From NCBI GenBank assembly GCA_050250375.1, contig JBFWOS010000002.1, forward strand, positions 773,149 to 837,148: a DNA stretch of 64,000 nt. Direction: 5' to 3'. Made by a program: the position numbers and the translations under genes. Below are positions 8,693-30,791 of this stretch, piece by piece. How positions within the stretch are numbered: position 1 is the stretch's first letter; every line of letters begins with the position of its first letter. The DNA is from Candidatus Omnitrophota bacterium. Lineage in GTDB: Bacteria > Omnitrophota > Gorgyraeia > Zapsychrales > Zapsychraceae. The notes beneath the pieces are model-generated. The model made no database searches. It was not told the origin of the DNA and saw nothing but the letters and a program-made list of their open reading frames with translations.

Positions 8693-9504
8693 GCTGTTTT
8701 TTCCTTTCCCTTTGAGAGTGTTTCTGAAATCTGTTTTAAGAAGGAACCCATTTCATTCTGCGCTTTCAGGTAATATTGGGCCGCTGAACCTTCGGGATCG
8801 CCGATCTTGACCGTCAGGCCCAGATTGCCGATCGCCCGGAAGGCGTCTTCATCCGTCACGTCATCGCCGGCATACATAATGAGCATCTTTTCTTTATTCA
8901 CTTTTTTCTGCCATTTGGCGCTCAGCCATAAAACCGCGTCGCCTTTGTTCCATTGCACCGGTGGACGCACCTCGATCACTTTTTTCCCTTCCAGGACATT
9001 AATCCTTTGGCTGTTCAAATAACTCCGGCAGACGTCCATGAATATCTTTTTGGCCAGGACCGCTTCCGTGTAGTCGCTCAAACGGTAATGGACTGTAAGG
9101 ACCATTTTTTTATCTTCGACCAATATGCCTTTGAGAGCCGCCAGTTGTTCGGTCAGGAGAGCTTTGATGTCCGATAAATCCTCCATATAGTCGCCGGAAA
9201 CAAGTTGCCGTGTGTCCATTTCCGGATCGTCCATTTCAAGGCCGTGCGTTCCGACGTACGTGATGCCCGGAATATCGATTTTTTGTTTCAAATCAGCCAG
9301 CATCCGCCCGCTGACAGCGGTCAGATGACAGCCTGGGGATTTGGATAAAGTGATTAAGCTTTTCCTCACCGCTTGCGGCATGACGGCTGTTTCCGGTGTT
9401 TCGGCAATCGGCGCCAGGGTGCCGTCATAATCCAGAAAAAGGAATAACTGTTTATTGAGCAATTCCTTCTCAAATTTCTTCCATTCATCAAAAAAATATT
9501 TCAT
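8689..9504 (-). CDS. otsB: Trehalose-6-phosphate phosphatase (HAD family)
   Basis: It has HAD motif I (LFLDYDGTLAPI) and a late DD motif (YAGDDVTDEDAF). It sits in an operon with a GT20 synthase gene. Confidence 0.8.
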   Translation of the reverse strand: MKYFFDEWKKFEKELLNKQLFLFLDYDGTLAPIAETPETAVMPQAVRKSLITLSKSPGCHLTAVSGRMLADLKQKIDIPGITYVGTHGLEMDDPEMDTRQLVSGDYMEDLSDIKALLTEQLAALKGILVEDKKMVLTVHYRLSDYTEAVLAKKIFMDVCRSYLNSQRINVLEGKKVIEVRPPVQWNKGDAVLWLSAKWQKKVNKEKMLIMYAGDDVTDEDAFRAIGNLGLTVKIGDPEGSAAQYYLKAQNEMGSFLKQISETLSKGKEKTA

Positions 9505-9537
9505 GAGTACCTTAAAGAATAGCCGGCCGCGGCAATC

Positions 9538-11766
9538 TTATTCCTTTTTTAATGAAGACAATTCATTGATAATACTTCCGGCCCAGCGATACACGTTATT
9601 TTCCTTAATGCCTTCAAGCATCCGGTGCATGCGCTGCTGTTTTTCTTCGACCGGCATTTCAATGGCCAGGTTAATCGCGTCAGCGAATTCTTCGGTCGAA
9701 TACGGGTTGACGGAAATAGCGTCGGTTAATTCCCGAGAAGCGCCGGTAAAACAGCTGAGGATCAAGACCCCGTTTAAATCGGGTTTCGCCGTGACGAATT
9801 CTTTAGCCACCAGGTTCATACCGTCATGCAGGGAACTGACCACACAGACGTCAGCTAAGGCGTAAAACGGAAAAACCTCATCAATCGAAAAATAACGCTT
9901 TAAATAAATGATCGGATTCATCGCCCCGTTAGAGTGTTTCCAGTTAATCTTTTCAACCAGTTGATCAATCTGTCCGATCAGATCGTGATAATGTTTGATC
10001 AGCGTGCGGCTGGGCGCGCCCAACTGGATAAAAACAAATTTGTCTTTGTGCTGCGGATATTTTTCCAGAAACCGGTCAATGGCGTGCATACGTTCAATGA
10101 TCCCTTTGGTGTAATCAATCCGTTCAACCCCTAAAAAGATGATCTTGTCTTCCAGGTCATAATCTTTTTTTAATTGGGCGATCACTTCCGGAGTATTTTG
10201 GAATTTGGAAGGCATGAGCGGATCCACGCTGATCGGCAAGGCCCGGACAAAGGTCTCGTGGTTCGCCCGCACAACGCTGAATTTTTCTGAATCCACCCGT
10301 GATTCCAGGACACGGTTCGCTGTTTCCAGGAAATTATTGCAATGGAACTGGACGTGAAAACCGATCAGATCGCAGTTCAGCATCCCGTCCAGGATTTCTT
10401 TCTGGTAAGGACAGATCGAGAAAACTTCCGGGTTCGGCCAGGGGATATGCCAGAAAATCGCGATCATTGCATCAGGTCTTTTTTCTTTTATATATTTCGC
10501 CAAGAGGGTGAAATGATAATCCTGGATAAAAACGTAGGGTTTTTCCCTGGGCAATTCTTCCAGGATCGAATCGGCAAATTTTTTATTTACCTTTTTATAC
10601 ATCTGCCAGTCGGATTCCCGAAAGACCGGCCGGGTGTGGGTGATGTGGCATAAGGGCCACAATCCCTCATTTGAAAAACCGTAATAATATCCCTCCTCTT
10701 CCTCTTTGGATAACCAGACGCGTTTTAAAATGTACCGATTATCTTCCGGCGGAACACCTAACTTGTCCTTGGAGTTGACAAATTTTTTATCCGCATTTCC
10801 TGAACCCTGGGCGACCCAGGTTCCCCCGCACGCGCGCAGGATCGGGTCGAGCGCAGAGACAACACCGCTGGCCGGGCGGATGCATTGGATCTCCCCGCCC
10901 ACTTTGTCAACCACGTGCATATAAGGTTCACGGTTGGAGACGATGACCAGCGCGTTTTCGCCCATTTTGGCCTGGACAAGGTTGCTGAGTTTATCCTCGG
11001 TCCAGGCGTCTTCTTTTTGAAGGCGGGTCTGGGCTTCACGGGTTACCGTTTTTCGGGCGACGCGTAATTTTAAGGCCACCTGCTCGACTTCGCTGGCGAG
11101 TTTTCCCAACGCATCCCCGGCCACAAACGGCTGGAGTTTATCCGTCTCACCTTTCTGGAAACGATGGAACCAGACGGTCATTCGCTGGATCGGAAGAAAA
11201 AATGTCTGCCGGAGGATAACGGAAACAACAAGTATGATCAGGACCGTAAATATAATCAGACTGATGCAGATCCTTTTCCAAATCTCCATCAGCCGGGCAA
11301 ACACAAAGGATGTGTCGTTGATAATTTCAACGGCCCCCAGAATTTTGTGTCCATCGGTAATAGGCAGGATATAACTGTATAGTTTGAATTCAGCGAATTG
11401 TTTTAATGTTCCGCGGGACGTGTTGGACAGCAAAATTTCCCTGATGTAGGGAGTTTCGTTCTGGCGCCAATCAGCCAGCCATTGTGTGACCGCAAAGACT
11501 TCGCCTTCACTATTATAAATAATACATCCCTGCCGGCGTTCGCGATTCTGGAATTTCTCAACGAGATAGCGGGCGTCTGTATCATTGCGTGTCAGAAGGA
11601 TATTTTTGACGGATAGTTCCATTCCCTCCGCAACGGCCCTGGACTTCCGGTTTAGATCATCCAGCAACCGCTCTTCTTCGAACCTGACCTGGAAGAATCC
11701 GTAAGCGGAAAAAACAACCGTTGTGACAACTAAGATGGGGAAAATGAATAAAAAGAATTTTTTCAT
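9538..11766 (-). CDS. otsA: Trehalose-6-phosphate synthase (GT20) with an N-terminal two-TM periplasmic-sensor plus HAMP-like extension
   Basis: The first ~260 aa read TM1 (FLFIFPILVVTTVVFSAYGFF), a ~140-aa extracytoplasmic segment, TM2 (ISLIIFTVLIILVVSVIL), then a HAMP-like linker (...QPFVAGDALGKLASEVEQVALKL...). The C-terminal ~480 aa match OtsA (LVIVSNREPY..., IQDYHFTLLAKYI..., IFWHIPWPNPEVF..., DLIGFHVQFHCNNFL). The ORF is continuous over 742 aa. Confidence 0.8.
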   Translation of the reverse strand: MKKFFLFIFPILVVTTVVFSAYGFFQVRFEEERLLDDLNRKSRAVAEGMELSVKNILLTRNDTDARYLVEKFQNRERRQGCIIYNSEGEVFAVTQWLADWRQNETPYIREILLSNTSRGTLKQFAEFKLYSYILPITDGHKILGAVEIINDTSFVFARLMEIWKRICISLIIFTVLIILVVSVILRQTFFLPIQRMTVWFHRFQKGETDKLQPFVAGDALGKLASEVEQVALKLRVARKTVTREAQTRLQKEDAWTEDKLSNLVQAKMGENALVIVSNREPYMHVVDKVGGEIQCIRPASGVVSALDPILRACGGTWVAQGSGNADKKFVNSKDKLGVPPEDNRYILKRVWLSKEEEEGYYYGFSNEGLWPLCHITHTRPVFRESDWQMYKKVNKKFADSILEELPREKPYVFIQDYHFTLLAKYIKEKRPDAMIAIFWHIPWPNPEVFSICPYQKEILDGMLNCDLIGFHVQFHCNNFLETANRVLESRVDSEKFSVVRANHETFVRALPISVDPLMPSKFQNTPEVIAQLKKDYDLEDKIIFLGVERIDYTKGIIERMHAIDRFLEKYPQHKDKFVFIQLGAPSRTLIKHYHDLIGQIDQLVEKINWKHSNGAMNPIIYLKRYFSIDEVFPFYALADVCVVSSLHDGMNLVAKEFVTAKPDLNGVLILSCFTGASRELTDAISVNPYSTEEFADAINLAIEMPVEEKQQRMHRMLEGIKENNVYRWAGSIINELSSLKKE

Positions 11767-18168: not shown

Positions 18169-19923
18169 TTACACATTTATTTTCGATAAATGGTATAACC
18201 CGACAAAAAAATTCCGCGCATTGGTTCCCAGCGTCTTGGTCCGGTAACCGCCTTCCTGCACGATCAGGGTGGGCAGATTGCTGCCGGCGATCATTGACCC
18301 GAGTTTTTTAAAATCATCTTTGCGCAGGGCCCAGGTCCCGGTCGGGTCATCCTTGGCGGTGTCCAGGCCGAGGGCAACGATCAGGTAGGTGGGGTCGTAT
18401 TTTTTGATCAAGGTTAAGGCTTTGCCCAGATGAATAAAATATTGTTCCGGGGTCAGGGCCTCGGGCAACGGGATATTTACATTAAATCCTTTCCCCTCGC
18501 CTTCCCCCTGTTCATCGGCAAAACCGGTAAAATACGGATACGAATATTTCGGATCGCCGTGAAGTGAAACGGTAAACACATCCTTTCGGGTATAAAAGAT
18601 ATCCTGCTGGCTGTTGCCGTGATGATAATCCACATCCAGGATGGCCACTTTGCCGTATTCACTCAGCTTATGAGCCGCCAGGGCGGAATTGGCGAAATAA
18701 CAAAATCCGCCGAAACTATTACGTTCCGCGTGATGGCCGGGCGGCCGCACGAGCGCGTAGGCAAACCGTTTCCCGCCGAGAATTTCTTCGGCGGCCGAGA
18801 GCACACAATTGACCCCTGAGCGCGCGGCCAGGTACGCGTTGGTATTTAATGGCGTAAACGTGTCGATGCAATAATATCCGGCGCGGACCGGCATCTCAAC
18901 CGGTTTACGGGATTTGTTGCGGATCGGGAAAATATAAGGGTAAATGGATTTATTGTTCGGGATGGATTCGCAGGCCTTTTTCAGGAACGCGAGGTAATCT
19001 TTATCATGGACCGTCTGGAGCACTTTATCCGGATAAACGAGGGATGATTTTTTGACCATAAAGTCCAGTTTTTCCAGTTCCCGGATAATTACTTTCAGCC
19101 GGACCGGGCTTTCCACATATCCGCGGTCATGGATGTGATGGATTTCGTGGCCTTCATTGGCAATATAGATGATTTTTTCTTTCGGCGTCAGGGATTCATT
19201 AATCTCAGGGGCCACCTTTTTTTGATACTTGGCCGGACGCAGATAAATATTGGCTCCGTCAAAGGATCGCAAAATCGTCCGGATATATTCTTCCGAACAC
19301 AAAAAGGAATAATTCCGCCCGAGGATGGCCCGCACCGCCGCCTTGAAAAAAGCGGTATCCGGGAATTCATTCCCTAATAAATCCAGCATCAGATACGGCG
19401 GATTGTTTCCGCCCTTTTTTAATGGTGTCTCGTAGGCCGACCCCAGGACCGGGTACACGCCGAATTTTTCATAAAAGGCCAGCGTCCGCGCGTGTTTTTT
19501 CTGGTCTTCCTTTTTGGGGGCCAGGGCGGGATCATCCGGCAGGCATTCAAAAAGCAAAGCCTTCACATCGAGGCGTTTGGCCTCTTCGCGGATCCGTTCA
19601 TACAAAGCGCCGCCGACGCCACGGTTTGTCTGGGCCACCCCGGCGGCCATAAAATCCAGAAAACAAAAATTAACATCCGGGATGTACAACAGTAAGGCAA
19701 ACCCCAGGATCGCCCCCTGTCCTCTTTCCGCGATAAAAAGCCTGGTCTGGTACTGATATTTTAAAGGGTTATCAATTTTGTCCGGGAGGATCTGCAATTC
19801 TTTTTCATTCAAAAATGAAAATTGCGACCGCATGATCGTCTGTACTTGAGCGATCAAATTCTTGTTGGCGGTGGTCGATGTATCCAGAATACGGCGGATG
19901 TGGAACATAACTGAGGACCTCAA
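18169..19923 (-). CDS. Fusion of an N-terminal GNAT acetyltransferase domain with a C-terminal histone-deacetylase-superfamily (AcuC/APAH-like) domain
   Basis: The N-terminal half carries GNAT motif A (AQTNRGVGGALYERIREEAKRLDV). The C-terminal half has HDAC hallmarks: RPPGHHAERN, ILDVDYHHGNSQQDIFY, VSLHGDP and EGGY. It is one continuous 584-aa ORF. Confidence 0.75.
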   Translation of the reverse strand: MRSSVMFHIRRILDTSTTANKNLIAQVQTIMRSQFSFLNEKELQILPDKIDNPLKYQYQTRLFIAERGQGAILGFALLLYIPDVNFCFLDFMAAGVAQTNRGVGGALYERIREEAKRLDVKALLFECLPDDPALAPKKEDQKKHARTLAFYEKFGVYPVLGSAYETPLKKGGNNPPYLMLDLLGNEFPDTAFFKAAVRAILGRNYSFLCSEEYIRTILRSFDGANIYLRPAKYQKKVAPEINESLTPKEKIIYIANEGHEIHHIHDRGYVESPVRLKVIIRELEKLDFMVKKSSLVYPDKVLQTVHDKDYLAFLKKACESIPNNKSIYPYIFPIRNKSRKPVEMPVRAGYYCIDTFTPLNTNAYLAARSGVNCVLSAAEEILGGKRFAYALVRPPGHHAERNSFGGFCYFANSALAAHKLSEYGKVAILDVDYHHGNSQQDIFYTRKDVFTVSLHGDPKYSYPYFTGFADEQGEGEGKGFNVNIPLPEALTPEQYFIHLGKALTLIKKYDPTYLIVALGLDTAKDDPTGTWALRKDDFKKLGSMIAGSNLPTLIVQEGGYRTKTLGTNARNFFVGLYHLSKINV

Positions 19924-21304: not shown

Positions 21305-21328
21305 AAAACACCACGCGCGTGGTGTTTT
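21305..21328. terminator. Perfect 24-bp palindrome AAAACACCACGCGCGTGGTGTTTT, a candidate bidirectional intrinsic terminator
   Basis: Read directly. The GC-rich stem is flanked by A4/T4 on both sides, so either strand forms a hairpin plus a U run. It lies ~100 bp downstream of the STAS-channel gene stop (21426). Confidence 0.55.
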
Positions 21329-21425: not shown

Positions 21426-23129
21426 TTACGAAGCCGTGACCTCGGGTACAGCCGGTATCTTTTTTTTCCAGTGAAAAATATCCCGGATAAAAATAACGGC
21501 GACCGCCACCAGGAGCAGTGCGATGCTCTTGTCCGCGACCTCCACCGCCATCTTTTCCGCGATCGAGGCGACGTCTGTGTTTCCGGTCAGGTTGACAAAA
21601 AAATGATAGACCTTCATGGTTCCCTGATAAATGGGCAAACCCGCCATAAAGGTGATAAAAGCGACCACAATGGAATTAAGGGTTCCGGACACAAACCCGG
21701 CCCACAAAAGTTTAAGCGGTTTGTGAAGGTCGATGAACCCCCATCTTAAAAAAAGCCAGGTCATGACGGCGATAAAAATGCTGCAGAACATCCACACCCA
21801 GTACGACGGTTCCCAAAATGTCCAGGACATAATCAGATTGTAAATGATGCCGGTCAGGATCCCGGCCCGCAAACCTCCAAGCACAACGGCCAGCGAGGTC
21901 CCCAAGGTATCCATAAAAAACGGCCAGCCCAGGACCGTCATCAGGACCGAACCAGAATAGTTCAGCATGGACATGGCAATGATCAGCAACCCCGTCCTCT
22001 GCCGGAAATAATTTTCCGCCAGTTCCTGGGCCCAGAATTCCGTTTTTAATTTCGGCGGTTCCATGTTATCGAACAGCCCTCCGTCATCCGGGGTGTTGGC
22101 GCTCACCAGTTTGCCGATGAGGGCGGATACATACATAACTCCGATGATCACCTGCACGATGACAATCGCGCGCGACAAAGATGACACTGCGGTAAAACCG
22201 CTGAACCCGGTGGAACTCATGGAAACAAAACTGAAATAAAAAAATGCAGTCATTTTCGGTGACGTCTCGCCTTCCGGCATGGAGATTGATCCGGGCGCGA
22301 ACGCCTCGAGCAGCGCGTAGATCACGCCGAACGTCATCCCGATCATTATATAGACGCTGATGGCGCCGAACAGTTCATTGATCTTGACCTTTTTGACGGC
22401 CAGGACATGCATAAGGATCATGGATAACGTGTAAATAAGAAATATAACCAGAAAGACCATCTCCGCCACCATGATCTGCTGGTCCTGGATAAACATGTTG
22501 CTCCAGGCCGTGACCAAAGTCGGGATCACCAGGAGCACCCCTCCGGCCACGTGCCGGATGTTATAACTGACGGCGTAGATCCCGGACAGCAGGACAAACG
22601 AAAAAAACAGGAGATAAATGACGGCCGTCGAATTGGCCTCGAAGAAAGGAAGAGCGACAATAAAGACGATCAAGGCTGTCAGTAAAGACAGGCATTTATT
22701 GTTCTTAAGCGTTTCGGCCATCCGTGGAAAATAGGCGGACTTAACTTCTTTCTGGTCAAAGGCGGTCACCGCCTCCTGTTCGGAACCAAAGACTTTCAAT
22801 TTTTCCTGTTCATGAAAGATATCAAAGTAAGCTTTCAAACTTTCCGGCGGATTGATCAGGCCGATCTTCTGGTCTTTCTGCTGCATTTCCATCAGTAGGA
22901 CGGCGACTGTTGAACTGTCAATTTCCCGCACGTTTTTCCCATCCAGGATGAGATGTTTTTTCGGCAGTCCGGCCTTTTGCATTTTTTCCCTGAATTCCAG
23001 GATTTGAGGAAGGGTCGCATGGTTGATATCCCCCCGGAATTTCAGGATCCGGGCGTAATCCAGTTCAATCCATCCGTCCAGATGGGACGGGTAAGGAATA
23101 TTGTGGTATTTAAGAAAATCGTGGATCAT
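21426..23129 (-). CDS. Three-part membrane protein: N-terminal STAS domain, an ion-channel pore domain (Ion_trans_2-like, filter STGFSG), and a C-terminal ECF-S-component-like membrane domain
   Basis: aa 1-125 read LILDGKNVREIDSSTVAVLLMEMQQKDQKIGLINPPESLKAYF (STAS/SpoIIAA-like). aa ~130-340 form TM-pore-TM, with AFFYFSFVSMSSTGFSGF resembling the K-channel signature (TVGYG → TGFSG). aa ~340-567 are 5-6 TM, with DTLGTSLAVVLGGLRAGILTG resembling the ECF S-component motif (TLQTxAVLLAGxLLG). Confidence 0.65.
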   Translation of the reverse strand: MIHDFLKYHNIPYPSHLDGWIELDYARILKFRGDINHATLPQILEFREKMQKAGLPKKHLILDGKNVREIDSSTVAVLLMEMQQKDQKIGLINPPESLKAYFDIFHEQEKLKVFGSEQEAVTAFDQKEVKSAYFPRMAETLKNNKCLSLLTALIVFIVALPFFEANSTAVIYLLFFSFVLLSGIYAVSYNIRHVAGGVLLVIPTLVTAWSNMFIQDQQIMVAEMVFLVIFLIYTLSMILMHVLAVKKVKINELFGAISVYIMIGMTFGVIYALLEAFAPGSISMPEGETSPKMTAFFYFSFVSMSSTGFSGFTAVSSLSRAIVIVQVIIGVMYVSALIGKLVSANTPDDGGLFDNMEPPKLKTEFWAQELAENYFRQRTGLLIIAMSMLNYSGSVLMTVLGWPFFMDTLGTSLAVVLGGLRAGILTGIIYNLIMSWTFWEPSYWVWMFCSIFIAVMTWLFLRWGFIDLHKPLKLLWAGFVSGTLNSIVVAFITFMAGLPIYQGTMKVYHFFVNLTGNTDVASIAEKMAVEVADKSIALLLVAVAVIFIRDIFHWKKKIPAVPEVTAS

Positions 23130-23276
23130 AGGGTTTAAAACAACCGCATCCCAGGAATGCGTAAGTTATTTTAACAAGATTAATTAGGAATTATACTCTT
23201 ACGCGGGATGAAAAGCAATCATTAGACAACGTGCTGCTGTTGTGTGCGAAAAATAAAAAACTCCTGATTTAGCCGG

Positions 23277-26200
23277 TTAATCAACAATCATGACGGCACC
23301 CATAAGAGGTCCGAAGACCCAGTGCGGCGGGGCTTCCTCGGAGTCGGTGTTACCGGAATTAATCGAAGAAAAAGATTTGATATTATTGCTGGAGGTCTGC
23401 GAGTCCTGGACATCCAGGAAATAAGTTGATTGTATCCCGGAGACAACGTCAAACGTAAACCGGGTCCCGGCCATCGATGACCTTAAATACAACGGAATGA
23501 CATCGCTGAACCCTTGAAGATTCAGAGTGTTGTTTATTGTGACGGTTGAACTCTTTCCAAACGACAATGTTCTGGAAGGTCCCGATGAAAGTTGTTTGGA
23601 GAAATCATAAAATGTTTCTGAAGAATTCACGTTTTGGTCTGCACCATCCATCACTACATTTCCCGAATGCGGATCAAAGATCCCCCCATTATTATTCCAG
23701 TCCCCGGATACAGTGATCGGCTCGTTTGCGCCCGTATCCAGTTCCCCCGCGTTTAGAAATAATGTGCCGTTAATATCTAAAGCATCCTGGATTGTGTAAA
23801 TTGCCAGTGCCGTGGAGGGTTGTTCACCGTTCGCCAGGCGCTGGATTTCAGGAACACTGAGCACACGATTGTAAATCCGGAAATCATCAATCAAGCCGTC
23901 CCAGCCGGCTGCCGCATCTTTGCCCCCCTGTCCGATCCGTAGTTCAGTCGCCCCGGTCATTGTCCCGGACAAAGCCGCATCAGAATAAGTCGGCGTATCA
24001 AGATTTCCGTCTATATACAGCCGGATCGGGTTCCCGCTGCTCCAGGTCAAAGCCAGATGCTGCCAGTTGGTCGTCTGGACAAAACTGGCGCTTTCGTATT
24101 GGCGATTGACGCCGCTGACCTGTAAACCGCATTTAATGACATTTGTTCCGCCGCCGCTTGCGCCGGATAAATCATAACGAAGTGTAAAAATATTGTCTCC
24201 CCCGTTGGGTGGTTCACCGTTGAAGAACCCGTCGTCCACTCCGGTCGCGTCTGCTTTTACCCACAATGATACGGTAAATTCTGACAAACCATTGATATAA
24301 TTTTCTGCGTCGCTATCAATAATGTAATCCGTGGTCCCGTCAAATTGAAGGCTGGCCGGGTTATCAAAGTGGATCATCGCAGATGTCCCTGTATTGGGCG
24401 TTGTATTATTGACATAAATCATATCCCTTTGGAATCCGCTGCTGCCGTAAGCGGTCGTCCCGGTTGTTTCATCCATTTTCCAGTACGCGATCAGGCCGTC
24501 GTTGATGATCAGATGATGGAATGAACTCGTCCCCGATGTAATTGTCTGCGGATTCGTGGAAATAAATAAGACCGTCGAATCGGCGTTGGTAAATGTACCG
24601 CCGGTCATATCCCAGGAACCATCGACGATGATGGTTGAATTGCCGGCCGTCCCGGCGGTCGCATCCAGTGTGGAATCCAAATCAACGAGTCCGTTGATGG
24701 TCAAGTCATATCCATCGGTCTGAAATACACCGGCTAAAACCTCGAAATCACTGCCGAGGATCTCATCAGCCCCCATCATAAATGTTCCCCCCAAACCGTT
24801 AATGCGCAAGAACTGATACGTCCAGTCCTGAATGACGTGTGTGCCGGATGTCGCGGTATACTCGGCTCCGGAACCCGGATTAAAGACAGGTCCCGAATCC
24901 AGGGTAATGGTCTGGCTCCCGGCCAGCTGCAGAAGACCGTCCACCGTGATCGTTGACCCGGCATTGGTGGTAAAATCATACACGCCCCAGTCAAAGGTCG
25001 CCCCCGCGTCGATCGTGATCGTCCCATCGACAACCAGTCCGCTGGCCAGGATCACTTCGGCGGATGTATTGGAAATCTGTAAATCCCCGATCGATCCTCC
25101 GCCGGAGGTCAGCGTTTGGGTGACCGTGCCATCGGCGATCAGGAGAATGTCGTCTTCAATACTGCCGGCCCCGGATTTGTTGATGTCTCCGGAAACCGTG
25201 ATGGTGTGAATCTCGGTCCCGTCGGCCAGAAGATCGCTCCCTGAAGCATTACTCATGGACAGGTCCTGCTGGACGAGCAGGTCATCACTGACATGGATGT
25301 CATTGGCCGAAGTGCCGGCAAACCCTAAATTATAAAAGGTTGTCGGTCCGGTTATTGTAACCGGGTTGGCGGTGCTGTTAAACGTAACCGTCCCGTTGCG
25401 CGCGATAAATGTGTCTGCGTTGATCCAATTCCCGAATATAAAAGATGAATAATTATTCGTCGCATGGGAATCGAGCGTGCCATCCAGTAACGAAAGCGTC
25501 CCTCCTACGGTAAAGGTCCCGCCCAGTTCAATTGTATAATCCGCCCCGCCGTCCGCGTCATCAATCACAACATTATAAAAGGTGGACGATCCTAACGCGA
25601 CGGTCACTGTACCGGCTGTCCCGTCAAACGTAACGGTCGAAGTGCCGGGATCAAATGTCCCCAAACTGCTGGCGATCCAGTCACCGCTTACTGTCATGAG
25701 AACCTGGTTAGTTCCCGCATCCAACTCACCATCCGAAATATTAATGTTTCCGTTTATATCCTGGTCATATTGAAGAATAACATTGTCACTGCCCGGAACA
25801 CCGGTATTAAAAACAGCAAAGTTTTCAAACGGCTGGTTCAGATTATCGACCATCTGGTCTGAAGTTCCGTTAAAGGTTACGGTACTGCCGGTTTCATTAA
25901 ATGTACCGCTGCTTGAATTCCAATCCCCGGAAACAGTCATCGTTCCGGTCAATGTTAAGGTTCCGCCCAGATTAAAATGGTGGGTGACAATTCCTTCCGG
26001 AGAAACGGTAATGACGGAATTATTAGGAAGAATATTAAGCTCTTCATCGGTATAAGAACCGTCGGCATCGGCGATTAAGACGGTCCCGGACGTCACAAGA
26101 TACATAACGTCTTCGTCATCCGTGTTGTCATAGTGACCGATTTCAGTCAGAGTGAACGTCTGGTTGTCATCACTGCCGATGGTCAGGACATGCCGGTCAA

Positions 26201-29200
26201 GCACGACACCGCTGATATTCCCGGAGCCGTCATATTTGGTGACGCCTGAAGATTCATCGGCGGCAATGATATCTCCGTCTCCGTCTTCGGCCCACATGGT
26301 CAGACGATCACCGATTAAAATCGGAGCGTTATTAATCGTCCAGGCTCCGCTGGAAACGACGCCGGTCATGCCGACACATAAATTACCGTTGACCGCCAGA
26401 GCCACGATGGTGTTGTCGACCAGGTCAGACGTGCCCGATATATCAACCGTGGCGGCAGTATAACTGATGACCAGACGGCCGTTATTCCCGGCTGTCCCGG
26501 CGCCTGATGTAGCGCCGCCGGTTCCCCCTTGCCCCGCATTGCCGGCGTAATCCGTGTCGGTGTTATTCCCGGCGGCAGTACCGCTGCCGTCGGAGGTCGA
26601 GGTGGCCGTTCCGGAGACAAAAGATGAACCCCCTCCACCACCGCCGCCGCCGGCATTGCCCGCCTGCGACCCGCTGCCTCCGCCTCCACCGTAATAGCCG
26701 GACCCTCCTCCTCCTCCCGCACCGTAACCGCTGGCGTTGGCATCACCGGTCCCGCCGTCTCCGCCGTTGGTGGTCCCGCCGTTTCCGGCGGAACCGTCAG
26801 CGCCTTGTCCGGAACGTCCGTCCGCTCCTGCGCCGCCTGTATCCGCCGCGCCGGCTGAACCGCTGTTATTGCCGCCTGTTCCTCCGCTGCCTCCGGAGGA
26901 TTGGTCTGCTCCGCCGCCCCCTCCGGCATTGCCTGACGCGCTGCCGTTGACACCTGTTGTTCCGCCACCCGGACCGCCGGCTCCACCCGGGGTGGCTGAC
27001 GAATTGTCACCACCACCACCACCTCCTCCTCCAGCGGAGATAAGTAAAGGTGTGGATGCGCGAAAGACCGCTGTCCGCCCCCCTCCACCCGCGCCGTCCC
27101 CCGAAGCGTTTCCTGAACCGCCGGAACTGAATGCTCCTGCCCCGCCGGAGCCGCCGACATGGATATCTAATGTTTCCATGGGAGTAACCGCCAGGGTTGC
27201 CGTCGCAAAGGCCGCTCCGCTTCCGTCTCCACCGGTACCTACCGTCCCTCCACCCCCGCCGCCTCCGCCTCCGCCCCAGGCTTTAACGGTGATCTCCGTG
27301 ACACCTTTGGGCACCACAAACGTATCCGATCCGGCGACCGTAAAAACTTGTGTTCCAAAACCATCCGGTAGTGGAAAAATCCAGAATGGAGAAGCCGTTA
27401 AATCGTCATTTCCTCCGTCATTCACGGAGTTTCTTGCCGTGATGTCATTGTTCAAGGCGTTGGAGTTGGCCACTTTGACAAATTCAACAATCTGGTCCCC
27501 GCCCGTTACACTCAAGCTGAACTGTGTTGACCCGTCGATGCTGTCAAGTTCGACTTCATTATTGATTTCACCGACCAGATTCAGGCTTCCCGTTACGGTA
27601 AAGGTGGTCGATTGTTGAAACTCCATTTTGGCTGAAAGGGTGGTACTGACCAGGTCCGCCGTTGTGAACGATTCGGTAAATTGCACCCCGAACGCGGATG
27701 AATTCGTTACTTCGATAATATTATATGTTTCTGAATTGCTGGCGACCGTTTGTAATCCTGTCCCGTCAAATTCAACCGTTGAGCTGGTTACCGTAAACGT
27801 ATCAAGGTTGGCCAGGTCAAGATCACCCCCCAGAAAAACAGTGTCGTTACTGATGTTGAACGTCGTGGCCCCGCCGTTATTGACCGTAAGACTTCCGTTG
27901 ATATCCAGATCGTCCGCTGTGCTGAGAACTCCGCCGGTAACGGACGATCCGATTTGGATATTGTTAAACGCTCCGCCTGAACTGGTCAGCGATGATGTTC
28001 CGTCAAACACAACGGTCGAATTCGTATTGATAAAATTCCCCCCGGTCATATCCCAATCCCCGGACACATTAAGGGTGGAATTCCCATCGGCGCCGCTCTG
28101 CGCGTCCAATGTTCCGTTCAAGGTCAACCCGCCGTTGATGTCAACTTCATATCCGCCTGTGATTAGATTGTCACCTGTATCAATCGTCAAGGTGTTGCTT
28201 AAGAAGTCCGAGGACAAGTTTACGGCGTTATTGGGGGAACGGCTGATCAGAACATTCCCCAAATTTGTCCCGCCGTCCACGTTTAAATCCAGAATCCCGT
28301 CCAGCAGTACCGTTCCGGCGCCGGCTGTGAATGTACCGCCGGTCTTGATGATATTGCCGGCGATATTAATATCGGTGTTATTGGCGCCCAGATTGATCGT
28401 TCCGTCGTTCATGTTTAACGGCCCGTCAATGTCGATCAGGATTGAGGAGTTGGGGGTAATCGTTCCGGTGTATCCGGATTCGATCAGGATACCTCCGACA
28501 TTAAACGCGGCGTTGACAGTCGCGTTATTTGTACAGCTGTTGGAAAAAACGACATTATGGGTTGTATTCGGGACAGAGGCCCCACCGCCGACACCGCAGG
28601 AATTTTCAGAAGCCGACCAGTTGGCCGCAGAATTTGTATTCCCTCCGGCCGAACCGACCCAATACCGGTTGACGGCAAAGATCCAATGCGGTGAGGCTTC
28701 GGCGTTATCGTTCCCGCCGTTATTGTTCGAAGACAAGGCCGTAATATCGTTTGAAGAAGCTTGTGAATCCATGATATTTAAAAAACTGACCGTTTGGCTG
28801 GATCCGGTCACATCAAACGTGAACCTTACTCCAGAAGAATTGCTTTGAAGGACCAGACGGTCATCGTCATCCAGCCCCGTCAGATTTAAAGTATTGGTGA
28901 TGGTCTGGGTTGAGGAGGCGGCAATGGTCAGAGTGGTGTTTGAACTGTTGTCGGTGGATTCAATCTTGGTCAGATTGCGGAAGGTAGTTGATCCCGTAAT
29001 ACTCTGGTTATCGCCATCGAGGATGACCGTTGATACGCCGGATCCCGCAGCCAGGGAACCCGAAGCGCCCATCAGCCAGTTTCCCGCGAGATTTATGTTG
29101 ACGTTATTGGTTCCCGAATCAAGATTACCGTCTGTAATCGTCAGCGTTCCGTTGATGTCCAGGGCATCAGACAAAATAATGTCATCATTTCCGGATGACC

Positions 29201-30791
29201 CGGTATTATTCAACAGAATATTATAAAACGATTCTGTATCGCTGGTGATCGTCTGATCGCTTGTCCCGTTAAATGTGATCGTCCCGGTGCCGGCGTTTAG
29301 GGAACCTCCTGTAGAATCCCAGTTCCCTGTTAAATCCATTGTCCCGGTAATCGTGAGTGTTCCATCCAGATCGGCATGATGCGTGCGCACACCTTCCGGT
29401 GAACTCACCGTCACCGTATTACCGGATAAAATTCTTATTTGTTCATCCGAATAACTGTTTCCCGCATCGACAATCAGTACTGTCCCGCTGAAAAGAACAC
29501 TGTGCAGGACATCTTCATCATTGCTGTTACCATAAAGTCCGATTTCCGTGACGCTCAGATTCTGGTTGTCCGTGCTGCCGATGGACAAGACATGGCGGTT
29601 TAAAACCATACCGGTGATATTTCCGGAGCCGTCATACTGTGTAACGGCCGTTGCTTCATCGGCCGTGGCTATATCCCCGTCGCCGTCTTCCGCCCAAACG
29701 GTAATAACCTCATTGGATGTGATCGGAACATCTGCGATCGTCCAGGCCCCGGCTGAGACCGTTCCGGTTAACGCCGTAAAGCGGACCCCGTTAACCGCGA
29801 TCTTAACCAAAGTTCCATCCGCTAAATCCGATGTCCCGGAAATATCCGCCGATGTATAGGAGATAACTAAACGCCCCGGATTTCCGGAGGTTCCGGAAGA
29901 CGATGACGCTCCGCCGGTTCCGCCCTGCCCGGCACTGCCGGCATAATCCGCGTCGCCGTTATTACCTGCCGATGTTCCTGAACCGGCTGTTGTTGATGTT
30001 GAAGACCCGGTTAATAAGGAAGAACCGCCGCCACCGCCGCCACCGCCGGCATTACTCGCCAACGAACCGCTTCCGCCGCCACCGCCAAACCTTCCTGCTC
30101 CACCTCCGCCTCCTCCGCCATAACCATTCGCGTTTGCGTCACCGTTACCACCGGAGGCGCCTCCAATCGTACCGCCGTTTCCCTTCGAACCATCCGCTCC
30201 CTGTCCGCTTCGACCGTCGGCCCCGGCGCCACCGCTCAAGGCTGCCCCGGCCGTGCCTGTATTATTTCCACCTGTGCCTGCGGCCCCGCCGGCCACCGTT
30301 GTTCCGCCGCCACCGCCACCCGAACTGCCAGACGCGCTGCCGGCTGTCCCTGATGAACCGCCTCCCGGTCCGCCATTTCCGCCAGGTGTTACTGAAGAGT
30401 TATCACCGCCTCCACCGCCTCCGCCTCCGGGCGCAATGAGTAACTGAGTCCCGCCGCGCGCTACACCCGAACGGCCCCCCCCACCGCCACCGTCTCCGGA
30501 ATTTGCACCTGAGCCGCCGGTACTAAAATCCCCTTGACCACCGCCGCCTCCCACTGTGATCGTGAGCGACTCCGCCGGTGTGACGACAAGCGTTGCTCCT
30601 GAAAAACCTGCCCCGCCGCCGCTCCCTCCTGTACTGGATGCGTTAGTCCCGCCGCCACCGCCGCCACCGCCTCCTCCCCAAGCTTTAACGCTGACCGAAG
30701 TTACACCTTGGGGTACACTCCAGGAAGAGGACCCTGCTGAATTAAATACAACCTGGGCCGCCCCGGCCGGAGCCGTCCACAGGCCCATCAA
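23277..30791 (-). CDS. Giant (2,504 aa) glycine-rich, beta-helical-repeat surface/adhesin-like protein with a LamG (concanavalin A-like lectin) domain
   Basis: One continuous ORF with a TTG/ATG start at 30791/30788. It has two Gly-rich domains. The first is QVVFNSAGSSSWSVPQGVTSVSVKAWGGGGGGGGGG..., and its counterpart is TQVFTVAGSDTFVVPKGVTEITVKAWGGGGGGGGGG.... Long runs of parallel-beta-helix-type repeats (…GDWxxxGGTF…STVxFxGTSDQ…) follow. A LamG domain (aa ~2101-2323, nt ~23823-24491) ends in GLIDDFRIYNRVLSVPEIQRLANGE. Three module ends share SP[HF]W[IV]F. No classical signal peptide is evident at the N-terminus. Confidence 0.85.
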   Translation of the reverse strand: MMGLWTAPAGAAQVVFNSAGSSSWSVPQGVTSVSVKAWGGGGGGGGGGTNASSTGGSGGGAGFSGATLVVTPAESLTITVGGGGGQGDFSTGGSGANSGDGGGGGGRSGVARGGTQLLIAPGGGGGGGGDNSSVTPGGNGGPGGGSSGTAGSASGSSGGGGGGTTVAGGAAGTGGNNTGTAGAALSGGAGADGRSGQGADGSKGNGGTIGGASGGNGDANANGYGGGGGGGAGRFGGGGGSGSLASNAGGGGGGGGSSLLTGSSTSTTAGSGTSAGNNGDADYAGSAGQGGTGGASSSSGTSGNPGRLVISYTSADISGTSDLADGTLVKIAVNGVRFTALTGTVSAGAWTIADVPITSNEVITVWAEDGDGDIATADEATAVTQYDGSGNITGMVLNRHVLSIGSTDNQNLSVTEIGLYGNSNDEDVLHSVLFSGTVLIVDAGNSYSDEQIRILSGNTVTVSSPEGVRTHHADLDGTLTITGTMDLTGNWDSTGGSLNAGTGTITFNGTSDQTITSDTESFYNILLNNTGSSGNDDIILSDALDINGTLTITDGNLDSGTNNVNINLAGNWLMGASGSLAAGSGVSTVILDGDNQSITGSTTFRNLTKIESTDNSSNTTLTIAASSTQTITNTLNLTGLDDDDRLVLQSNSSGVRFTFDVTGSSQTVSFLNIMDSQASSNDITALSSNNNGGNDNAEASPHWIFAVNRYWVGSAGGNTNSAANWSASENSCGVGGGASVPNTTHNVVFSNSCTNNATVNAAFNVGGILIESGYTGTITPNSSILIDIDGPLNMNDGTINLGANNTDINIAGNIIKTGGTFTAGAGTVLLDGILDLNVDGGTNLGNVLISRSPNNAVNLSSDFLSNTLTIDTGDNLITGGYEVDINGGLTLNGTLDAQSGADGNSTLNVSGDWDMTGGNFINTNSTVVFDGTSSLTSSGGAFNNIQIGSSVTGGVLSTADDLDINGSLTVNNGGATTFNISNDTVFLGGDLDLANLDTFTVTSSTVEFDGTGLQTVASNSETYNIIEVTNSSAFGVQFTESFTTADLVSTTLSAKMEFQQSTTFTVTGSLNLVGEINNEVELDSIDGSTQFSLSVTGGDQIVEFVKVANSNALNNDITARNSVNDGGNDDLTASPFWIFPLPDGFGTQVFTVAGSDTFVVPKGVTEITVKAWGGGGGGGGGGTVGTGGDGSGAAFATATLAVTPMETLDIHVGGSGGAGAFSSGGSGNASGDGAGGGGRTAVFRASTPLLISAGGGGGGGGDNSSATPGGAGGPGGGTTGVNGSASGNAGGGGGADQSSGGSGGTGGNNSGSAGAADTGGAGADGRSGQGADGSAGNGGTTNGGDGGTGDANASGYGAGGGGGSGYYGGGGGSGSQAGNAGGGGGGGGSSFVSGTATSTSDGSGTAAGNNTDTDYAGNAGQGGTGGATSGAGTAGNNGRLVISYTAATVDISGTSDLVDNTIVALAVNGNLCVGMTGVVSSGAWTINNAPILIGDRLTMWAEDGDGDIIAADESSGVTKYDGSGNISGVVLDRHVLTIGSDDNQTFTLTEIGHYDNTDDEDVMYLVTSGTVLIADADGSYTDEELNILPNNSVITVSPEGIVTHHFNLGGTLTLTGTMTVSGDWNSSSGTFNETGSTVTFNGTSDQMVDNLNQPFENFAVFNTGVPGSDNVILQYDQDINGNINISDGELDAGTNQVLMTVSGDWIASSLGTFDPGTSTVTFDGTAGTVTVALGSSTFYNVVIDDADGGADYTIELGGTFTVGGTLSLLDGTLDSHATNNYSSFIFGNWINADTFIARNGTVTFNSTANPVTITGPTTFYNLGFAGTSANDIHVSDDLLVQQDLSMSNASGSDLLADGTEIHTITVSGDINKSGAGSIEDDILLIADGTVTQTLTSGGGSIGDLQISNTSAEVILASGLVVDGTITIDAGATFDWGVYDFTTNAGSTITVDGLLQLAGSQTITLDSGPVFNPGSGAEYTATSGTHVIQDWTYQFLRINGLGGTFMMGADEILGSDFEVLAGVFQTDGYDLTINGLVDLDSTLDATAGTAGNSTIIVDGSWDMTGGTFTNADSTVLFISTNPQTITSGTSSFHHLIINDGLIAYWKMDETTGTTAYGSSGFQRDMIYVNNTTPNTGTSAMIHFDNPASLQFDGTTDYIIDSDAENYINGLSEFTVSLWVKADATGVDDGFFNGEPPNGGDNIFTLRYDLSGASGGGTNVIKCGLQVSGVNRQYESASFVQTTNWQHLALTWSSGNPIRLYIDGNLDTPTYSDAALSGTMTGATELRIGQGGKDAAAGWDGLIDDFRIYNRVLSVPEIQRLANGEQPSTALAIYTIQDALDINGTLFLNAGELDTGANEPITVSGDWNNNGGIFDPHSGNVVMDGADQNVNSSETFYDFSKQLSSGPSRTLSFGKSSTVTINNTLNLQGFSDVIPLYLRSSMAGTRFTFDVVSGIQSTYFLDVQDSQTSSNNIKSFSSINSGNTDSEEAPPHWVFGPLMGAVMIVD
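23280..27374 (-). repeat. Copy 2 (aa 1140-2504) of the intragenic tandem duplication; it carries the LamG insertion
   Basis: Homologous to copy 1 over its length, and ~226 aa longer. The extra length is accounted for by the LamG domain at nt ~23823-24491. Boundaries are approximate. Confidence 0.55.
27375..30791 (-). repeat. Copy 1 (aa 1-1139) of the ~3.4 kb intragenic tandem duplication in the giant gene
   Basis: V35 of VKAWGGGG maps to nt 30687-30689 and its homolog V1169 to nt 27285-27287, an offset of 1,134 aa (3,402 nt). The protein segments align (e.g. AEDGDGDIATADEATAVTQYDGSGNITGMVLNRHVL vs AEDGDGDIIAADESSGVTKYDGSGNISGVVLDRHVL). Nucleotide identity is ~70%. Boundaries are approximate. 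Confidence 0.6.

Follow-up and report, generated by a model that had tools for sequence, protein, structure and literature searches.

The stretch of DNA analysed here, 64,000 nucleotides of a Candidatus Omnitrophota genome (assembly GCA_050250375.1, contig JBFWOS010000002.1, positions 773,149 to 837,148; hereafter the window), encodes on its minus strand, at 21426..23129, a protein of 567 amino acids that joins three modules: an N-terminal STAS domain, a six-transmembrane (6-TM) pore-loop channel, and a C-terminal membrane domain resembling the S components that belong to transporters of the energy-coupling factor (ECF) type. The S-like domain belongs to a subfamily that is found repeatedly beside or fused to K+ channels. 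In our judgement the chances are about even that the whole is best explained as a tetrameric cation channel that co-opted an S component as its ligand module and a STAS domain as its regulator. No STAS-channel, channel-S-component or TMEM175-S fusion is described in the literature that we searched, in agreement with the initial annotation of this stretch, which could match the three-way combination to no described family.

A conserved three-domain protein

The open reading frame (ORF) exists exactly as first described (567 codons and a stop), and a protein 100% identical to its product is on record from a Candidatus Omnitrophota metagenome-assembled genome (MAG) under the name 'lipid asymmetry maintenance protein MlaB'. 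MlaB is a soluble STAS protein of about 100 amino acids encoded together with MlaFED. We reject this identity for a 567-residue membrane protein that has no MlaFED or other Mla genes in its neighbourhood. In addition, MlaB chains match the STAS profile of the clade at E-values of 0.4-0.6, more weakly than the anti-sigma antagonist TM1442, the best match at 0.026. A joining of two or three genes by sequencing or assembly error is countered by 12 full-length homologues with the same domain order, 59-83% identical to the protein, which come from independent assemblies of Omnitrophota-type MAGs and have no frame breaks. Since the fusion is conserved across independent assemblies, the ORF is not a product of sequencing error. 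One homologue does run on into an unrelated DUF1223 domain, and the public name is what it is; even so, we give practically no credence to the protein being an artefact or simply MlaB. The homologue in question (P0008; L005, 5977-8439; 813-820 amino acids, from a MAG labelled Planctomycetales) probably reads through because its stop codon was lost or the assembly is wrong there, and its DUF1223 domain has a signal-peptide-like start of its own. The next gene at that locus (8744-9631) encodes a Kir-like protein with an unusual filter region (SVQSLNGPYKPVG).

Each part of the protein is under purifying selection. When codons were compared with those of the homologue at locus L001, pN/pS was 0.10/0.77 for the STAS domain, 0.09/0.72 for the first four transmembrane (TM) helices, 0.05/0.63 for the pore module and 0.12/0.63 for the S domain, so that synonymous change is saturated and nonsynonymous change is low in every domain. 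At 0.49, the gene's GC content is the same as in the DNA around it, so there is no sign of recent transfer.

The AlphaFold2 model of the full-length protein, built on an alignment of 149 sequences, has a mean pLDDT of 89.9 and a pTM of 0.78, with low confidence confined to the linker at residues 345-378 and the C-terminal tail (pLDDT 49-76 at residues 341-370). Along the minus strand, the gene encodes a conserved N-terminal peptide recognised in alignments (residues 1-16; 23082..23129), the STAS domain with its beta-alpha fold (17-125; 22755..23081), four TM helices forming an S1-S4-like bundle by hydropathy and model (145-246; 22392..22697), the pore module (247-345; 22095..22391), an acidic, low-confidence linker that ends in a short helix at 369-377 (346-378; 21996..22094), and the S-component-like six-helix domain (379-553; 21471..21995). 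Within the pore module the model places M1 at 250-277, the pore helix at 293-305 and M2 at 317-344, and it resolves residues 379-553 into a six-transmembrane bundle of eight helices, two of which are short. If the STAS domain lies inside the cell, the helix order would take M1 from inside to outside and M2 from outside to inside, the normal orientation of a channel. The linker would then also be cytoplasmic, the pore loop would enter from outside, and the S domain would start from the cytoplasm, as S components do. In Foldseek comparisons of the domains with the Protein Data Bank (PDB), E-values were weak throughout (0.07-1), and the argument from fold therefore rests on consistent ranking and on TM-scores.

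A 6-TM channel with an altered selectivity filter

The central region is a pore-loop channel by both profile and fold, as the initial annotation had proposed. The Pfam model Ion_trans_2 (PF07885) matched residues 266-344 with 23.5 bits, its gathering score being 22.5, and relatives reach 40-95 bits. The modelled pore (pLDDT >90) superposes on the pores of KirBac3.1, Kir and hERG with an rmsd of 2.7-3.1 Å over 102-116 columns and Foldseek probabilities of 0.99-1.0. A profile of the channel module matched 267 K+-channel sequences in the PDB, always through the pore region only, with LmK (2.5e-10) and KirBac3.1 (5.6e-9) as the best matches and prokaryotic K+ channel chains at 1e-10 to 1e-5. With that profile no solved structure was matched by sequence over TM1-4. 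Relatives match the TM region of Kch (PRK10537), and the protein searched singly against PDB sequences found NaK-derived chains only. The pore had at first been seen as a bare TM-pore-TM unit, a description that has to be revised, as four further helices (145-165, 169-186, 191-214 and 217-244) precede M1 in the model. The fourth of these contains no Arg or Lys and hence no S4 arginine ladder, so that the channel, with its 6 TM helices, lacks a classical voltage sensor.

With Kch, LmK, KirBac, MthK and KcsA the protein shares the module of M1, pore helix, filter and M2, a YFSF motif in the pore helix, and the M2 glycines, of which G330 and G339 are invariant. It differs from them in lacking RCK and CNBD domains, in having as regulatory domains an N-terminal STAS domain and a C-terminal membrane-embedded S domain, and in its filter, which reads STGFSG instead of T-V-G-Y/F-G-D. 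The initial annotation had set TGFSG opposite TVGYG, one residue out of register. When the protein is aligned without gaps to relatives and to chains of the NaK type, S306-T307-G308-F309-S310-G311 (codons TCC ACC GGG TTC AGC GGT, 22197..22214) stands opposite T-V-G-F/Y-G-D. A hydroxyl residue and the first Gly are retained in the inner part of the filter, whereas the outer Gly and the Asp are replaced, and the sequence departs from the K+-selective signature T-[VIL]-G-[YF]-G-[DE]. All 13 clade members have STGFSG without variation, and it was seen only within the Omnitrophota-type clade; in fusions of channel and S domain that lack STAS the filter is T[VAL]G[FY]GD, and in free-standing channel relatives it is mostly TTLGYGD.

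Pore-loop channels of the NaK and HCN/CNG types also depart from TVGYG in the outer half of the filter (TVGDG in NaK, CIGYG in HCN) and conduct both Na+ and K+. By analogy, an STGFSG pore would have fewer K+ sites and weaker K+ selectivity, and may be a less selective pore for monovalent cations. The present filter differs from those of NaK and HCN in that the last Gly has become Ser and the following Asp has become Gly, a combination that, to our knowledge, has no place in any characterised channel. Four of the six filter positions depart from the K+ signature, and STAS domains are typical signalling outputs in RsbV/SpoIIAA systems; the pore might accordingly conduct nothing, the protein being a membrane sensor or scaffold whose output is STAS partner switching. 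We consider this improbable. The pore module is the most conserved domain of the protein (92% identity to the L001 homologue, pN 0.05), and an invariant derived filter, an invariant pore helix and invariant M2 glycines form the pattern of a working pore, not of a relic. Moreover, P0013, a genuine STAS-less protein, carries the same STGFSG filter, which argues against an output through STAS and indicates that the filter change is not strictly tied to the STAS domain.

At its locus the P0013 gene (L035, 886-2190) follows by 39 nucleotides a gene for a canonical Kv-like channel (35-847) whose S4 is rich in R, whose filter reads TTVGYGD and which ends in a CxxC...CxxC tail, and the two might form a channel pair. 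Non-canonical filters were also seen in other fusions of channel and S domain (L056, L076, L082, L094, L095, L102 and L111), where they read M/N-G-G-V-G-D, T-V-G-V-G-D or L-A-G-G-S-S-D. Judged from these sequences, filter remodelling is recurrent in the fusion family.

The C-terminal domain and its relatives in ECF operons

The initial annotation had likened the C-terminal domain to ECF S components on the basis of a short motif. The motif did not prove to be a sound basis, and the conclusion itself held on other grounds. The NCBIfam model ECF_S_CD3073 (NF045596) matched residues 391-546 with an E-value of 4.6e-5, and 34 of the 35 family members match it, the best at 2e-17. Membership in the CD3073 equivalog is ruled out, since the whole protein scores 23.2 bits and the domain alone 27.7 against a cut-off of 180 bits; relatives encoded in ECF operons themselves reach only 57-59 bits. 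No Pfam-A model covers the domain above threshold, and the literature searched held nothing relevant on CD3073. Modelled alone, the domain has a pLDDT of 88.4, and its eight best fold matches in the PDB are all S components, among them RibU (3p5n), ThiT (4tkr, 4muu and 3rlb) and TmRibU (5kbw), with probabilities of 0.80-0.99, TM-scores of 0.5-0.6 and an RMSD of about 6 Å; 5edl and NikM appear lower in the list. The profile of the S domain found nothing meaningful among PDB sequences and matched annotated 'ECF transporter S component' proteins of Arthrobacter at about 1e-10.

Free-standing relatives encoded in ECF operons are 35-38% identical to the fused domain in an almost gap-free alignment. 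At 31 of 37 free-standing loci an ORF for an ATP-binding cassette (ABC) ATPase lies divergently upstream, and at the two loci that we examined (L063 and L105) EcfT/CbiQ (PF02361; TIGR02454) lies directly 3' of the S gene, which is preceded by two ECF-type ATPases (best match TIGR04520, 257 bits). Residues P403, D407, T411, Y430, W446, P471, D533 and K534 are conserved across the family, and the fused domain and the ECF-operon proteins have in common P403, D407, T411, Y430-N431, W446, K470-P471 and D533-K534, with E530 conserved in addition among fused forms. Conservation of polar residues is seen in loops 1 and 3 and in helix 6. We regard the homology to real S components, as read from profiles, fold ranking and these alignments, as secure. 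The domain shares with RibU, ThiT and FolT the six-helix fold and consistent, if sub-threshold, profile matches; it differs from them in its covalent fusion to a channel and in having no ECF module nearby. The AxxxA motif in helix 1, which some S components use for docking on EcfT, was uninformative as a test, being absent from the fused domains and equally from the ECF-operon relatives.

The ECF operon at L063 (1170-6418) also encodes a nucleoside hydrolase and a PfkB kinase, and that at L105 (2147-6265) a nucleoside phosphorylase. Both operons suggest that the 'CD3073' family has an uncharacterised relative among ECF transporters, one of a nucleoside type.

Does the fused domain still bind a ligand? 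It might instead be auxiliary only, contributing to stability, lipid contact, oligomer packing or localisation, with gating left to STAS, voltage or pH. No ligand is known for the domain, its CD3073 match is far under the cut-off, and it superposes on solved S components with the RMSD of about 6 Å given above. On the other hand, the polar or charged residues D407, T411, D533 and K534, which lie within the membrane or in loops, vary little or not at all among ECF-operon, solitary and fused forms, and purifying selection on the S domain is comparable to that on TM1-4 of the channel. We therefore think a purely auxiliary role quite unlikely.

Recurrent linkage of channels and S domains

Two profile re-searches through a word index added merely two and about 20 proteins; the family was opened up by a full scan of 1.84 billion representative proteins together with a pattern scan of metagenome contigs. 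In the full scan the three-domain form occurs as one cluster (P0007) plus fragments, and proteins of 420-455 amino acids with channel and S domain and no STAS form about 11 clusters, with Altiarchaeales, Methanotrichaceae and Thermoplasmata MAGs among their named sources. The best 150 matches of the full scan are nearly all free-standing channel modules and include about 12 free-standing S modules of about 190-210 amino acids. Judged from these sequences, the union of channel and S domain is a rare yet widespread architecture of archaea and bacteria with normal K+ filters, and the addition of STAS is specific to the Omnitrophota-type clade. In its union of channel and S domain the present gene is not unique.

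The metagenome contigs were scanned with a pattern derived from the S-domain alignment, yielding 80 loci whose ORFs were then analysed. Pore-loop channel fusions account for about 32 of the 80, some with variant filters such as GGVGD and TVGVGD, and free-standing S domains for about 37, though the sample was picked by similarity to fused sequences, which biases the fusion share upward, and these proportions are not frequencies. At four loci (L047, with the ORF ending near 2007, L049, L050 and L057) the S domain follows a channel of a different kind, a TMEM175/DUF1211 K+ channel, in complete ORFs of 404-412 amino acids (PF06736, 74-76 bits against a threshold of 25); a fifth such case, P0034 (L041, 3760-5023), spans a scaffold gap. 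At another four loci, of high GC (L116, L088, L120 and L121), a gene for a pore-loop channel lies immediately upstream of the S gene in another frame. At L116 the channel gene (751-1416; 221 amino acids, 6 TM, TVGYGD filter) overlaps the S gene (1413-2003; 196 amino acids) by the four nucleotides ATGA. This arrangement of separate genes is the unfused counterpart of the fusion. The linkage to two unrelated channel families and the translational coupling indicate a functional partnership of channel and S domain, for which they are strong comparative evidence despite the biased sample. Six further candidates (P0031, P0044, P0058, P0073, P0078 and P0085), considered as reversed or second fusions, were rejected as tandem two-pore channels.

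A rough neighbour-joining tree of S domains places most of the fused ones, the STAS forms included, in one clade, with P0024 and P0025 outside it. The TMEM175-fused domains are nested among those fused to pore-loop channels, the ECF-operon and solitary forms lie outside the fused clade, and the STAS clade is sister to P0015, P0018 and P0021.

These results bear on whether the S domain may still be a working transporter subunit that takes up a micronutrient, served by a shared (group II) ECF module encoded at another site, with the channel providing charge compensation or a co-localised K+ flux and not being gated by the S domain. The relatives that stand free are true S components of ECF operons, the fused domain has kept the residues conserved in those proteins, and the 34-residue disordered linker could permit toppling. 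However, no ABC ATPase ORF lies within 3-10 kb of the 11 fused-gene loci (the flank at L035 being <1 kb), and just two of the roughly 32 metagenomic fusion loci have one, compared with the 31 of 37 free-standing loci. EcfT and EcfA/A' are likewise absent from the flanks of the 11 fused loci and from the 64-kb window, whose ABC genes amount to a type-I ABC importer at 50.9-54.6 kb. Because group II S genes normally lie far from their ECF module, the missing neighbour is weak evidence here. Against it also stand the separate clade formed by most fused S domains in the neighbour-joining tree and the fusions to two unrelated channel families which, with the translational coupling, mark the channel as the likely functional partner of the S domain. 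It would also be sterically awkward for four S domains, tethered around a tetramer, to topple. On balance we hold a retained transport function to be unlikely, though it is an alternative to be taken seriously.

The STAS domain and the N-terminal peptide

The STAS domain named in the initial annotation is borne out by PF01740 (residues 27-120, with 26.0 bits where the gathering score is 22.6) and by the STAS fold of the model, which superposes on TM1081 and SpoIIAA with a TM-score on target of 0.71 and an rmsd of 2.9 Å. TIGR00377 scored 25 bits against its cut-off of 53. In the profile alignment I70-D71-S72-S73 stands opposite M-D-S-A of TM1442, which we take to be the phospho-serine site of the SpoIIAA/TM1442 family; D71 is invariant, and 10 of 11 sequences have Ser or Thr at position 72. 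With SpoIIAA, RsbV, TM1442, TM1081, MlaB and the STAS domain of SulP, the domain has in common its fold and, where helix 2 begins, an Asp-Ser motif. It differs from free-standing STAS proteins and from the C-terminal STAS domains of SLC26/SulP in being fused to a membrane protein on the N-terminal side of a channel. It also differs from known STAS proteins in the absence of kinase and phosphatase genes nearby and in an extra conserved 16-residue N-terminal peptide. This peptide (residues 1-16; MIxDFLKxHxIPYPxHLDGW) lies ahead of the STAS fold, is without known counterpart, and is the most conserved stretch of the protein (94% identity to the L001 homologue, pN 0.025). It could be an interaction or inactivation peptide.

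A proposed mechanism and its evolution

Given the above, four copies of the protein may assemble as the subunits of a pore-loop cation channel that resembles Kch, with 6 TM helices and no charged S4. A co-opted S component would stand in the membrane beside the channel, four per channel. The S domain was perhaps first a partner of the channel encoded by an overlapping downstream gene, then became fused to the pore-loop channel and also to TMEM175. It would retain the polar residues common to genuine S components and might bind a small molecule at its outer face, possibly a nucleoside-like one if the operons of the free-standing relatives are a guide. The flexible linker attached to M2 would pass this binding on to the gate. 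An N-terminal STAS domain was likely gained in the Omnitrophota-type clade as a cytoplasmic regulator, acting through partner binding or phosphorylation of S72, and the filter would have shifted from TVGFGD to the invariant STGFSG, with a loss of K+ selectivity of the kind suggested by NaK and HCN. The initial annotation had suggested gating by a ligand or by phosphorylation, and of this putative scheme comparative genomics favours the ligand part. The architecture, the homologies, purifying selection and the recurrent linkage of channel and S domain stand as results, whereas the tetramer, ion conduction, altered selectivity, ligand gating and control by STAS belong to the proposal.

The design principle would be that of MthK with RCK, MlotiK1 and SthK with CNBD, and GluR0, namely a tetrameric pore with one sensor per subunit on the inner helix. 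It would differ from them in that their sensors are soluble, whether cytoplasmic or periplasmic, whereas the sensor proposed here is a transporter subunit integral to the membrane. We tentatively go a step further and suggest, as a possibility that we would not yet call probable, that the S component was recruited as a membrane-embedded sensor of extracellular ligands. The fusions would then make up a class of ligand-gated channels in prokaryotes that had not been recognised before, one that arose on a pore-loop channel, moved to the unrelated TMEM175 scaffold and, in Omnitrophota, received a STAS input and a filter that is not K+-selective.

Several observations weigh against the proposal of a ligand- and STAS-regulated channel. 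The Foldseek E-values lie at 0.07-1 for every domain, as noted above; inter-domain contacts and the positions of the conserved polar residues follow from helix order alone; and the metagenomic shares are inflated in favour of fusions. The nucleoside idea has two related operon types as its basis. Genes for an RsbW/SpoIIAB-type kinase or a PP2C phosphatase are absent near the window gene and near its counterparts at L001, L036 and L037. Lastly, Ser in place of the last filter Gly could abolish conduction rather than relax selectivity.

Gene neighbourhood

The gene lies between that for a 2504-residue Gly-rich/Laminin_G_3 protein upstream and that for a 167-residue protein of unknown family downstream. 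The initial annotation had pointed to a palindrome at 21305-21328 as a strong bidirectional terminator. The palindrome is real, being perfect over its 24 nucleotides, 97 nucleotides past the stop codon, with a folding energy of -18.4 kcal/mol (z -2.97). Our terminator scan made no call at this site, because just four U follow the stem; a terminator here is plausible, if unproven. In the 147-nucleotide spacer between the giant gene and the start codon, the minus strand has a perfect TATAAT (plus-strand 23190-23195), 61 nucleotides upstream of the ATG. After it comes a hairpin with a T-run (23161-23145 in the direction of the gene, 15 nucleotides before the start codon) that the scan recorded as terminator-like and that also folds; this hairpin may be the terminator of the upstream gene or a 5' untranslated-region element or attenuator. 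No clear Shine-Dalgarno sequence was seen upstream of the start codon, and an Rfam search upstream of and around the ORF found no riboswitch and no other family.

The neighbourhoods of clade members, when compared, are not conserved, and their small unknown neighbours are unrelated to one another; a DUF1579 gene recurs in the window and at L037 only. In the window the DUF1579 gene adjoins one for a 584-residue fusion (18169-19923) of a GNAT acetyltransferase domain and a histone-deacetylase-family domain, so that acetylation and deacetylation domains are found within one protein. The giant protein (23277-30791) has two long Gly-rich near-repeat halves and one Laminin_G_3 domain, and the GC content climbs to 0.61 at 26-27 kb, in the region of its gene.

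Implications

All parts of the protein belong to known superfamilies, and its public annotation as 'MlaB', which is misleading, is corrected here. As the first STAS-channel fusion that we could find, it would extend STAS signalling to ion channels, and STGFSG, a natural filter variant fixed in a whole clade, may be useful for the study of selectivity. The more interesting result is the broader pattern, in which a subfamily of S components has been wedded to K+ channels in three forms, as an overlapping gene, as a pore-loop fusion and as a TMEM175 fusion. The ECF operons of the free-standing relatives make a candidate class of ligands available for these channels. Until now S components have been seen solely as subunits that capture a substrate and topple against the ATPase module of an ECF transporter, and their repeated coupling to K+ channels suggests a second career for the fold, as a channel regulator or a channel-coupled carrier.

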